Origin: Candidatus Aminicenantes bacterium
Lineage (GTDB): Bacteria > Acidobacteriota > Aminicenantia > Aminicenantales > JAFGBC01
Assembly (NCBI GenBank): GCA_963702005.1
Contig: OY969696.1
Coordinates: forward strand, 4,064,001-4,128,000
Length of the DNA stretch: 64,000 bases
Direction of reading: 5' to 3'
Shown here: piece by piece, positions 10,842-13,807 of the stretch
How positions within the stretch are numbered: position 1 is the first letter of the stretch
Layout: every line of letters starts with the position of its first letter
Program-made: the position numbers and the translations under genes
Notes under the pieces: generated by a model
What the model was told of the DNA's origin: nothing
What the model saw: only the letters and a program-made list of their open reading frames with translations
Database searches by the model: none

Positions 10842-12329
10842 ATGAAGTCCAAAATCTTCGCCGCTCTCATGATCTGTCTGTTTCTTACCGGAGCCCTCTG
10901 GGCCCAGCAGCCCGGCGAGCAGAGCTACAGCGACAGCCCGAGCCTGCTCCAGGGGATCAAGGGCGAGCGGGTCCGGTCCGTCATCGACACCATAAACTCG
11001 AGCGACCCGGATCGAGTCCGCCGTTTTATCAACGAGGAATGCACCGGCTCCTTCCGGACGGGTATTCCGATGGACGAGCACGTCCAAACGCTTTTGGGAT
11101 TTTTCCGGCAAACCGGGGGCGTCGATTTCTTCGGCATCCGAAGCTATGTTCCCGAACGCAAGGGCGAAACCGTCGTTATCGTCAAGGACCGGAACCTGGA
11201 AAGCTGGTGGGGCATCACGCTCCGCTTCACGGAGAGCCCCGAAGCCCTGATCCAAGGCATCGGAATCAGCCCGGCTCGCGCGCCGTCAGGATTGAAGGAA
11301 GCGCCCCTGACCGAAGGCGAGTTCGCCGCGCAAACCAAGGCGCTTATCGACAAGCTCATTGCCAAGGGCGCATTTTCGGGGGCTCTCCTGGTCGCCAAGG
11401 GCGACAAAGTGCTGCTGACCTCGGCCGGCGGAGAAGCCAGCAAGGCCTTTCACGTCCCGAACAACGTCGACACCAAGTTCAACCTGGGATCGATGAACAA
11501 GATGTTCACCTCGACGGCGATCATGCGGCTGGTCGAACAGGGAAAACTCTCTCTCGACGACCCGATCTCCAAGTTCCTGGACGAGTCTTGGCTTCCTAAG
11601 TCCGTAACCGAAAAGATCACAATCCGCCATCTCCTGACCCACTCCTCCGGGCTGGGGAGCTACTTCAACGAGACCTATGACAAGAGCTCCCGGGCGCTCT
11701 TCCGCAAGCTCGACGACTACAAGCCCCTGATCAAGGACGACCGGCCGGCCTTCGAACCGGGCAGCCGCTTCCAGTACAGCAACACCGGGATGTTCCTGCT
11801 GGGCGTCGTCATCGAGAAGGTCACCGGCCAGGGTTATTTCGAACACATCCGAAAGGCCATCTACGAACCGGCCGGGATGACGAACAGCGACTCCTACGAG
11901 ATGGACGTCCCGGTCGAAAACCTGGCCATCGGGTACAGCCCCGATCCGTCCAGTCCCACCGGCTGGAGGAATAACCTTTATACTCACGTCATCAAGGGCG
12001 GTCCGGCCGGAGGCGGGTTCTCGACGGTCAAAGACCTCCACAAATTCGCCCTGGCCCTCCTGGCCGGGAAATACGTCTCTCCGGAGAGCCTGAAGATGAT
12101 GTGGACGGACCACCTCAAGGCCAACTACGGCTTCGGGTTCACGGTCGACCAAGGCCCCGCCGGCAAGGTCGTCGGGCACAGCGGCGGCTTCAGCGGGATC
12201 AACTCCGAGCTCGATATCTACCTGGATTCCGGGACTATCGTCGCCGTTATGTCCAACATCGATATGGGCGCGAGCCCGCTCGCCCGCAAGCTCGGCCAGT
12301 GGCTGGCCCGGGTCGGACCTGCGAAATAG
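10842..12329 (+). CDS. Serine hydrolase (beta-lactamase class C/AmpC-like family)
   Basis: SxxK (SMNK), LLTHSSG, YSN, GHSGG motifs; signal peptide; SD AGGAGG. Confidence 0.9.
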   Translation: MKSKIFAALMICLFLTGALWAQQPGEQSYSDSPSLLQGIKGERVRSVIDTINSSDPDRVRRFINEECTGSFRTGIPMDEHVQTLLGFFRQTGGVDFFGIRSYVPERKGETVVIVKDRNLESWWGITLRFTESPEALIQGIGISPARAPSGLKEAPLTEGEFAAQTKALIDKLIAKGAFSGALLVAKGDKVLLTSAGGEASKAFHVPNNVDTKFNLGSMNKMFTSTAIMRLVEQGKLSLDDPISKFLDESWLPKSVTEKITIRHLLTHSSGLGSYFNETYDKSSRALFRKLDDYKPLIKDDRPAFEPGSRFQYSNTGMFLLGVVIEKVTGQGYFEHIRKAIYEPAGMTNSDSYEMDVPVENLAIGYSPDPSSPTGWRNNLYTHVIKGGPAGGGFSTVKDLHKFALALLAGKYVSPESLKMMWTDHLKANYGFGFTVDQGPAGKVVGHSGGFSGINSELDIYLDSGTIVAVMSNIDMGASPLARKLGQWLARVGPAK

Positions 12330-12364
12330 TCAAACCCTCGACACTTCTATGATGGCGAAACGCA

Positions 12365-12525
12365 AGCCCCGAGAGTCTTTTTTCTTATCTTCGTTCCTTA
12401 TGGCTGCCTCGGTTTCTTGAACCACCCTTCTATCCGCGCCTCTAAGCGCACTGTAATATCCGGTCTCGGCTCCTAAACCTCATGGAGAACGCGACTCTCG
12501 CGAGTCCGTTAAGTGTCGTCCTAGG
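12365..12525 (-). ncRNA. Predicted bridge/seek RNA of the IS1111-type element
   Basis: Guide segments match the reconstructed target (CGACACTT, TCCATGA) and the donor junction (ATATTAC, ATAGA); each pair flanks a short hairpin; RNA ends approximate. Confidence 0.7.
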
Positions 12526-13552
12526 CAGCCGATCGATTCATGTCCGGGAGATACGTTCTTTTCTCGGTCAAGATGCGATAGATAATGGTCAGGAGCCGCC
12601 GCGCCACCGCGATCTTGGCCGCGTTCGGCCCCTTCCGCCTGGCCAGCCGGTTGTAGAGGACTCGAAGTCCTAGGTCTTTCTTGATCGCCGGATAGACCGC
12701 CTCCAGCGCCGCCCATCTCAGCCAGGCGCTCCCCTGTTTGGTGATCCGCCCATGATATGTCCGCTCTCCCGACGCATAGGTCGAAGGAATTACCCCGGCG
12801 TAGGAGTGAAGATGGGCCGGACTGGAAAACCGTTGGATATCCGCGATCTCCACCGCGACCAGTACCGCCAGCGTCGTGGCAAAACCCGGGATGCTGTCGA
12901 TGCGGGAGGCCTCCTCGATCGTTCCATACAAGGCTTGGACCCTTCCATCCGACGCCTTGATATGAGCTTGGGTTTCTTGATGTCCCCGCAGAAGATCGTC
13001 CAAGACCATCTTGTCCGGTCCCTCCAAGGGAAGCCGGCTGAGGAACTCGATCCCGCGGCCGCTGAACAGCCCGCCCGTTCGCTTGTCCACCTCCAGCCGG
13101 ATCTCTTCCTTCTGCTGAGCCAAGAGCGCCCGGATCTTGTTCTTGATTTCCGTCTGGATCCGAACCCAATAGGCCCGGGCTCTCAGCACTCTTTGCGCTT
13201 GCCGGTTCGCCTCGCCTCGTTGATAGATTTCCGGAATCAGGTCCGCCCGTAAAAGCTGGGCCAGTGTCCGGGAATCCCGCTTGTCCGTCTTGATCCGGGC
13301 ATGGGCGATCGCTTTGACCTGAAGCGCATTCGCCATTTTCACCTCGCCGCCCAGTTCCCTGAGAAGATCCGCCATCACATAGGAGGACCGCCCAGCTTCG
13401 AGAACGGCCGTGAACGGATGAAACCCCTTGAGGAAGGTCTCGACATTCCTCCTGAGGTTGAAGACGCGCCCCGTCTTCAGTTCCCGTCCGTCTTCGGCCA
13501 GAACCGTCAGCTGAGAGGCTTGCTTGTGATGGTCGACACCGATAAAATACAT
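12521..13552 (-). CDS. IS110 family recombinase/transposase
   Basis: IGVDHHK, VLEAG, KTDKRDS (DEDD RuvC), SIPGF, YAGVIPSTYASG catalytic Ser, AKIAVARRL. Confidence 0.95.
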   Translation of the reverse strand: MYFIGVDHHKQASQLTVLAEDGRELKTGRVFNLRRNVETFLKGFHPFTAVLEAGRSSYVMADLLRELGGEVKMANALQVKAIAHARIKTDKRDSRTLAQLLRADLIPEIYQRGEANRQAQRVLRARAYWVRIQTEIKNKIRALLAQQKEEIRLEVDKRTGGLFSGRGIEFLSRLPLEGPDKMVLDDLLRGHQETQAHIKASDGRVQALYGTIEEASRIDSIPGFATTLAVLVAVEIADIQRFSSPAHLHSYAGVIPSTYASGERTYHGRITKQGSAWLRWAALEAVYPAIKKDLGLRVLYNRLARRKGPNAAKIAVARRLLTIIYRILTEKRTYLPDMNRSAA

Positions 13553-13652
13553 CTGCGCACCTCCTTAAAAGAATTTGAGTCGACGTGTAATCTATCACAG
13601 TATTACCCGTCAGGGAGGTGCGTTTCGCTATCATGTTACCTCATGGAAGCCC

Positions 13653-13807
13653 TGAGTGCAGGCGTTTCGCAGTACTCATACTAAACGGGAAACGGTTTAG
13701 TATGGGTGCTGCAAGGCTGCTACCGGGCATGAAGGCCGGCACTCATAAGCCGTTTCCGGCTTATGGGTACTGCGAAACCGCCGCACTCATGAACCGGAAA
13801 CGGTTCA
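13653..13807. repeat. Nested palindrome cluster (REP doublet/BIME-like)
   Basis: Three hairpins with GAAA/TTTC loops (13669-13712, 13741-13768, 13790-13807) and an outer IR at 13653-13675 / 13767-13789. Confidence 0.75.

Follow-up and report, generated by a model that had tools for sequence, protein, structure and literature searches.

An IS1111-group insertion sequence in an Aminicenantes genome and its predicted target-reading RNA

The locus and its transposase

In the genome of a Candidatus Aminicenantes bacterium (GCA_963702005.1), we investigated a window of 64,000 nucleotides (nt), the whole stretch from position 4,064,001 to 4,128,000 of the 4.31-Mb contig OY969696.1; coordinates below are those of the window. 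It contains an insertion sequence (IS) of the IS110 family, which lies within a palindromic repeat resembling repetitive extragenic palindromes (REP), between two convergent open reading frames (ORFs). The element with both flanks was read on the plus strand (12200-13800), and 12300-12560 on the minus strand as well; the features are collected in Table 1. It is very probably a complete and probably mobile member of the IS1111 group that recombines at a CT dinucleotide, with a downstream RNA whose target loop would read the insertion site.

The transposase matches PF01548 (DEDD_Tnp_IS110, E 9.8e-16), PF02371 (E 6.1e-19) and the NCBIfam model NF033542, "IS110 family RNA-guided transposase" (195.6 bits, cut-off 140). 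Residues D7, E52, D90, D93 and S261-G262 align with identical residues of ISCro4 or IS621 (chains 8wt6 and 9t56), and the roles of the catalytic residues have been described for IS621 (PMC11208158). Judged by its sequence, the enzyme is an IS110-family DEDD/Ser transposase with conserved catalytic residues.

Published criteria for the IS1111 group are subterminal inverted repeats of 7-17 bp (PMC11208160), a longer non-coding region downstream of the transposase gene, and a transposase of 330-350 amino acids (aa) with the motif GL-P----S(t)G (both PMC11187229). In the present element the non-coding sequence measures 175 nt downstream of the gene (12346-12520) vs 87 nt upstream (13553-13639), and the protein motif reads G253-V-I-P256-S-T-Y-A-S261-G262, with V where the IS1111 motif has L. 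An earlier note on this DNA had classified the element as IS110-family and IS1111-type; the two Pfam domains, NF033542, the 16-nt subterminal repeat and the long region downstream of the gene confirm this. Between the subterminal arms of the relatives described below we found no consistent wobble pattern, and T-T mismatches occur too.

Table 1. Features of the element and of its predicted RNA, with the coordinates of the window.
Feature	Coordinates	Strand	Description and basis
IS body	12346-13639	minus (transposase and RNA)	1294 bp without the core; ends set by empty sites and conserved termini of relatives
Left CT core copy	12344-12345	plus	Final two bases of left target flank plus core; junctions vs uninterrupted repeats
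Right CT core copy	13640-13641	plus	Junctions vs uninterrupted repeats
Transposase/recombinase gene	12521-13552	minus	343 aa; ORF listing, Pfam, NCBIfam, chain alignment
Subterminal inverted repeat, left arm	12349-12364		3 nt inside the end; repeat search, 16 nt, 94% complementary
Subterminal inverted repeat, right arm	13619-13634		5 nt inside the end; partner of left arm
Predicted bridge/seek RNA core	12402-12533	minus	About 130 nt; ends predicted; a longer form could reach 12346
Target-loop basal stem, 5' strand	12521-12531	minus	Helix 1; 99.4% of cells paired, nearly invariant
Left target guide CGACACU	12512-12518	minus	Equals plus-strand left target (5 nt) plus CT; pairs with the other strand
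Target-loop distal hairpin, GCGA cap	12488-12510	minus	Helix 2; compensatory changes in 6 of 9 pairs
Right target guide CCAUGAG	12479-12485	minus	Reverse complement of CT plus 5 nt of right target; match in the window copy reaches 12486
Candidate handshake guide GU	12477-12478	minus	Directly 3' of right target guide; complementary to terminal AC of left donor
Candidate left donor guide AUAUUAC	12453-12459	minus	6/7 vs left donor ATGTTAC; no core pairing
Donor-loop distal hairpin UGCGC/GCGCG	12435-12450	minus	Helix 5; 99.7% of cells paired, one compensatory pair
Putative right donor guide AUAGAAG + G	12426-12433	minus	8 nt, reverse complement of last C of left donor, CT and TCTAT
Right part of interrupted palindromic unit, then more units of the repeat family	13642-13800		Target cluster; 16 short genomic matches

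Copies, relatives and the CT core

A search of the genome with 12300-13700 as query returned three full copies: the one in the window (W, 100%), L002 (99% identity) and L003 (100%). W and L003 are identical across the whole element, and the 343-aa ORF is complete in all three. Further copies are L004, at 78%, and the split L005/L006, at 80/87%. Another 16 short matches cover the right flank only, which indicates that the element sits in a dispersed repeat.

Relatives were collected by protein-guided scans of species genomes, mostly metagenome-assembled genomes (MAGs) labelled Candidatus Aminicenantes (24 loci), and from metagenomes (80 loci kept of 123 found). Within the first set together with the 5 copies of this genome (29 sources), 18 had both ends of the element located, 5 had a single end and 6 had neither. 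From the 109 sources in total, 91 contain the RNA guide anchors and 74 have both flanks of at least 12 nt, which gives 68 distinct combinations and 57 guide pairs.

The target repeat without the element is found in the same genome as ...TCAAMCCCTCGACA-CT-CATGGAAGCC..., reading CGACA-CT-CATGG around the core. The 12-mer CGACACTCATGG, which corresponds to the empty site, has 12 exact copies in the genome vs 0.5 expected by chance. When both junctions are aligned on the empty site, CT is their sole 2-nt overlap, and the body of the element is therefore 12346-13639. Among the distinct relatives, the left flank ends with CT in 66 of 68 (CC in the other two) and the right flank begins with CT in all 68; the junctions of L005, discordant under a TC core, agree once the core is CT. 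The dinucleotide core is CT, present at both junctions, and it reads AG in the orientation of the transposase gene.

The core had earlier been read as TC, because the element begins with TC and the right flank begins with C. Neither the uninterrupted repeats nor the junctions of the relatives bear out that reading, and the string proposed for the circle joint, which depended on it, falls as well. The limits of the element, formerly 12348-13642, are corrected accordingly, and the empty site reconstructed under the TC core is absent from the genome even when up to 4 substitutions are allowed in a 22-mer.

Some observations concern the more degenerate copies and the repeat itself. In L004 (G000:C1:3156007-3157342, minus strand) the ORF has 344 aa, but about 32 nt of repeat-like sequence separate its ribosome-binding site from the ATG. 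This insert is similar to the target repeat of the W type, and its probable effect is to uncouple translation. L005/L006 (G000:C1:987835-989026) is decayed, with an internal deletion of about 110 bp and a transposase ORF reduced to 134 aa, while L022, an intact-looking element in another genome, has guides and target sequence as in L005. The target is one module of a REP-like palindromic family, e.g. CACTCATGG-AAG-CCATGAGTG (12330-12345 and 13642-13800), which forms intergenic clusters with dozens of copies. The IS variants of the genome differ in the module that they target, and one module holds the 9-mer GCGTTTCGC, identical to part of the subterminal repeat of the element.

Target guides and their covariation with the flanks

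All seven strings on which the earlier note had built its RNA model were found in place when both strands were read. On the minus strand, CGACACTT (12518-12511) is followed by the GCGA-capped hairpin and TCCATGA (12486-12480), and further on by ATATTAC (12459-12453) and ATAGA (12433-12429). Two equalities also hold at the level of the strings, that of ACCTCATGGA at 12477 with 13638 and that of CTTCTAT at 12427 with 12344.

In the alignment of the five genomic copies, the segment 3' of the transposase stop codon equals the left flank of the same copy plus CT (CGACACT in W, GCAGTACT in L004, ATCCCCT in L005), and a second segment corresponds in reverse complement to CT and the right flank, with 8 matching nucleotides in W and 6 in L004. 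Uninterrupted 12-mer sites for W, L004 and L005 have 12, 15 and 19 exact copies in the genome, respectively. Since guides, flanks and empty sites differ in step, each variant appears to aim at its own module of the repeat. Flanks unrelated to the guides in other genomic copies had been named as something that would refute the guide reading; the flanks of L004 and L005 correspond to their own guides. The 5' guide is complementary to the transposase-sense strand and the 3' guide identical to it. For IS1111 seekRNAs, the top-strand match is described as lying 5' of the bottom-strand match in the orientation of the transposase gene, the order being reversed in IS110-type RNAs (PMC11187229).

The same correspondence was scored over the 57 guide pairs, with 2000 permutations of guides against flanks; for the left guide, which has two registers, the higher of the two scores was taken in observed and permuted data alike. 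The mean contiguous match is 6.30 for the left guide, vs 2.90 in the permutations (sd 0.16, maximum 3.49), and 5.74 for the right guide, vs 2.50 (sd 0.13, maximum 2.98). No permutation out of 2000 reached the observed mean for either guide, figures that overstate the significance somewhat since the relatives are not phylogenetically independent. At least 7 contiguous nucleotides match in 34 of the 57 left guides (permuted mean 2.2, maximum 8), and at least 6 in 37 of the right guides (permuted mean 1.8, maximum 8). Per position, identity over the 5 positions past the core is 0.79-0.93 for the left guide, vs 0.26-0.46 permuted, and 0.58-0.93 for the right guide, vs 0.24-0.36; it drops to background 5 nt past the core for the right guide and after 5-7 nt for the left one. 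The two target guides, which pair with different strands and share the core, covary with the flanks, so that the covariation check among homologous elements suggested earlier comes out positive for both. As to the two registers of the left guide, 42 guides have one additional U between the hairpin and the CU that pairs with the core, and 15 lack it.

These relatives form a natural series of retargeting, with 57 guide pairs and their targets, three of them in one genome. Guide lengths for the clade can be read from it: 5-7 nt plus the core on the left and 5 nt plus the core on the right. The element had also been called reprogrammable; in this clade, natural retargeting among the relatives is the only support for the word.

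The predicted RNA and its donor loop

A consensus fold was obtained from 74 distinct sequences. From 5' to 3' the RNA is predicted to contain a basal stem, the target loop with its hairpin, a second and shorter basal stem, the donor loop with its hairpin, and a small 3' hairpin. On this consensus 98.6% of the cells pair, vs 26-45% in controls with slid partners. There are 7 compensatory pairs vs 1.9 in shuffled alignments, and 0 of 500 shuffles reached 7. Six of the 7 are in the target-loop hairpin, the other helices being conserved and not covarying. The fold of minimum energy for the single sequence (z -1.88), in which GGCUGCC pairs with a distal GGCAGCC enclosing both loops, was rejected, given that the distal partner varies without compensation in the relatives; the basal stem of the consensus, unlike that partner, is conserved. 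No stand-alone copies of the RNA were found in the genome, all 5 nhmmer hits being inside elements. Transcription of the region and binding of the RNA by the transposase are inferred by homology with characterised elements; bridge/seek RNAs have been predicted for 93.0% of IS1111 elements (PMC11208160), and experiments have demonstrated seekRNAs of ISEc11, ISPa11 and ISKpn4 (Siddiquee et al. 2024, PMC11187229). The 5' strand of the basal stem coincides with the last three transposase codons (S-A-A) and the UAG stop, nearly invariant in the 74 relatives, so that the C-terminus of the protein and the structure of the RNA constrain each other.

In the donor loop, the two candidate guides behave differently. 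The right one is conserved as ATAGAAGG / AUAGAAGG in 80 of 80 scored relatives, the equivalent segments of the target loop being hypervariable. The left one, compared with the left donor in 28 distinct combinations, matches at 7/7 positions in 4, at 6/7 in 11, at 5/7 in 11 and at 4/7 in 2. Of the donor guides proposed earlier, the right one is an invariant segment that matches 8 nt of the joint, and the left one is weaker than had been stated, with 4 to 7 matches out of 7 and no pairing with the core.

For IS621, the position of the handshake guides has been described (PMC11208158), and all four guides are reported to include the core (PMC11208160). In our set, the two bases that follow the right target guide are GU in 67 of 68 combinations, and the left donor ends with AC in 28 of 28. 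This GU is a candidate handshake guide in the geometry of IS621; since GU and the donor AC are both invariant, they provide no test by covariation. The donor-loop handshake that had been read in CTTCTAT is merely core plus right donor, an artefact of the wrong core.

The base after the segment equal to CTTCTAT pairs with the donor as it is before exchange and not with the left target of W. Among the 57 distinct targets, the last left-target base before CT is C in 37, with CC in 24, and A in W. Once strands are exchanged, this C could be paired by a G that is fixed in the donor loop, which is a lead and not a finding. The preference for C before CT may reflect such a handshake G, or merely C-rich repeats. 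We put forward, as a speculative proposal that we rather doubt, that donor recognition in this clade is asymmetric: only the right donor guide, 8 nt across CT, would read the joined ends by base pairing, the transposase would mainly hold the left end via the 16-nt subterminal repeat, and the fixed G 3' of the right donor guide would act as a hard-wired handshake. The resulting bias to C (37 of 57) would resemble a protospacer adjacent motif (PAM) and be absent from IS621.

The more distant L036 and L037 (38-42% identity) are single copies whose ends could not be defined from one copy each, and they provide nothing on covariation of donor guides or handshake. In L037 (Omnitrophica MAG, 38% identity), an inverted repeat of 28 nt flanks the gene (1307-1373 and 2665-2692); its upstream arm is duplicated in tandem, and it is longer than the usual subterminal repeats of IS1111 elements.

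Proposed mechanism and alternative explanations

In the account that we prefer, the minus strand would supply both the 343-aa DEDD/Ser recombinase and an RNA of about 130 nt, beginning in the last codons of the gene and folding into two internal loops. The first loop would read the target, its 5' segment CGACACU pairing with one strand of the left target plus CT and its 3' segment CCAUGAG with the opposite strand across CT and right target. In the second loop, the conserved AUAGAAGG would pair with the joined ends of the element across CT, and a weaker segment resembles the left donor end. The recombinase would then exchange strands at CT between the circular element and the target. The circular intermediate, the donor pairing and the handshake are predicted parts of this account.

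Several observations weigh against this account, besides the shared ancestry of the relatives mentioned above, and we give them with the alternatives that they touch. That the matches between guides and flanks are due to chance, or are a by-product of insertion (e.g. a flank copied into the element), and have no guiding role is hardly credible. Single matches of 7-8 nt can arise in a region of 175 nt, and many targets are C-rich, which raises the background (permuted mean contiguous match 2.9), but none of the permutations came near the observed means. The matches also occupy constant columns of the alignment and end abruptly at 5-7 nt from the core, on opposite strands, as they do in family members already characterised, and experimental reprogramming has been published for relatives (PMC11187229). 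The permutation and per-position identity results effectively refute this reading. The matches are nonetheless uneven: 23 of the 57 left guides match over fewer than 7 contiguous nucleotides (L063, L075, L085 and L094 are poor on this side), the site of L002 has one mismatch to each guide, and the right target of L005/L022 fits only with one U bulged. In L046 (metagenome contig, 92% protein identity), a left guide of the L004 type stands beside a left flank of the W type, with 3 contiguous matches. The right guide of L046 fits its right flank at 6 nt, and this hybrid could result from recombination between copies or from a half-matched insertion. Moreover, the search of Rfam returned no family at threshold, with only three chance hits (E 0.95-9.9, 16-18 bits vs gathering values of 43-70). 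It is also possible, though we lean against it, that only the first loop guides, as in the short seekRNA of ISEc11. The second loop would then be structural or bind the protein, the ends would be read via the 16-nt subterminal repeats, and the likeness of the second loop to the ends would be partial or incidental. Complete identity between left donor guide and left donor is seen in only 4 of 28 combinations, 16 of the 28 have a C opposite A at position 2, and mismatches other than wobbles occur; the two bases 3' of this guide are never CU in the 28, hence no core pairing, unlike IS621. Its variable position pairs inside the RNA with the right donor segment (consensus helix 4). Donor ends and donor-loop segments hardly vary, and guiding by the donor loop hence draws no support from covariation. 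For ISEc11, an 82-nt seekRNA with matches to the target only was sufficient for transposition, and the authors suspect that recognition of the ends differs in IS1111 elements (PMC11187229). Against a merely structural second loop stands the segment AUAGAAGG, whose reverse complement is, without a mismatch, the joint (C, CT, TCTAT), and which is invariant in 80 of 80 elements where the target loops are hypervariable. In layout the second loop also repeats the target loop, from the basal stem through two single-stranded segments to the distal hairpin, and donor-binding nucleotides have been predicted for IS1111 elements (Durrant et al., PMC11208160).

As to mobility, the three copies with 99-100% identity and intact 343-aa ORFs suggest recent activity. 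The element is probably still mobile, as judged from its sequence, in agreement with the earlier note, which had called it probably active. We consider it improbable that it was recently immobilised, its guides and ends intact and its copies no longer moving (e.g. for lack of a promoter in this host), with the three copies as the trace of a past burst. In favour of immobilisation, the perfect sites number at least 15, of which only 3 are filled and 12 exact ones stand empty, and the two older relatives in the genome are damaged (the deletion in L005, with 134 aa left, and the insert before the ATG of L004). No sigma-70-like promoter was found in the linear element, and none spans the joined ends at up to 2 mismatches per hexamer, although the promoters of the host phylum may follow another consensus. 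A pair noticed by eye across the joint (TTGCGT-N17-TAACAT) has 3/6 and 4/6 matches only and was not counted. The immobilised state is opposed by the complete identity of W and L003, by the 99% identity of L002, and by the ORF with catalytic residues kept in all three copies. No public sequencing run contains half of the sampled words of the element, and the four runs that were compared consist of assembled contigs, which cannot show expression. Short pieces identical to parts of it are found in X1 and X2, and contigs about 88-95% alike, non-coding region included, in X20, a run of an RNA library, which likewise cannot show transcription. One contig of X4 skips from 12329 to 13640; this fits an uninterrupted repeat in a relative, as a weak indication.

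Comparison with known systems

A literature search returned no paper mentioning Aminicenantes together with IS110; supplementary tables, which lay outside this search, may bear on novelty. We regard as new the host lineage, the corrected anatomy and the natural series of retargeted guides. The element was set against catalogued insertion sequences by their published descriptions only, and it may be identical with one of them. In itself it is an ordinary REP-targeting insertion sequence that leaves the understanding of the family unchanged, and an intact and compact orthologue from an uncultured phylum, with a 343-aa protein and a predicted RNA of about 130 nt.

The element closely resembles ISEc11, ISPa11 and ISKpn4 (PMC11187229), which share with it a transposase of about 340 aa, the motif G-x-x-P-x-x-x-x-S-G, subterminal repeats and a long downstream non-coding region. 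In them, too, two RNA segments match opposite target strands and overlap at the insertion point, the one complementary to the top strand being 5'. The REP-type target is shared with ISPa11, and natural retargeting among relatives with the IS1111 seekRNA elements. In contrast with these three, our element is known from sequence alone, in an uncultured Aminicenantes host, and its RNA is predicted to start inside the last codons of the transposase gene.

ISPpu9 and ISPpu10 (PMC12288879) also have a fixed dinucleotide, AG in the orientation of the transposase gene and CT on the other strand, insert inside REPs and occur in several copies per genome. ISPpu9, however, belongs to the IS110 group and has an upstream RNA, extra small RNAs and modular circles, whereas here there are no stand-alone RNA copies.

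With IS621 (Durrant et al. 2024, PMC11208160; Hiraizumi et al. 2024, PMC11208158), the element shares the CT core, the catalytic D, E, D, D and S, and the order of the loops, target first and donor second, both of them internal and bounded by a basal stem on one side and a distal hairpin on the other. As in IS621, the left guide has the sequence of the top strand across left flank and core, the right guide corresponds in reverse complement to core and right flank, and the dinucleotide directly 3' of the right target guide, at the handshake position, is complementary to the left donor end. Unlike in IS621, the RNA is downstream of the transposase gene, gene and RNA together run the opposite way with respect to the CT strand, there are long subterminal repeats, the left donor guide matches imperfectly and lacks the core, the extension of the donor loop does not match the left target of W, and the protein is distant (E ~1e-8). 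Many IS1111 RNAs have their donor-binding bases in a multi-loop (Durrant et al., PMC11208160), whereas a simple internal loop is predicted here. The series of retargeted guides could help to choose or engineer recombinases of the IS1111 type, which are less studied than those of the IS621 type.

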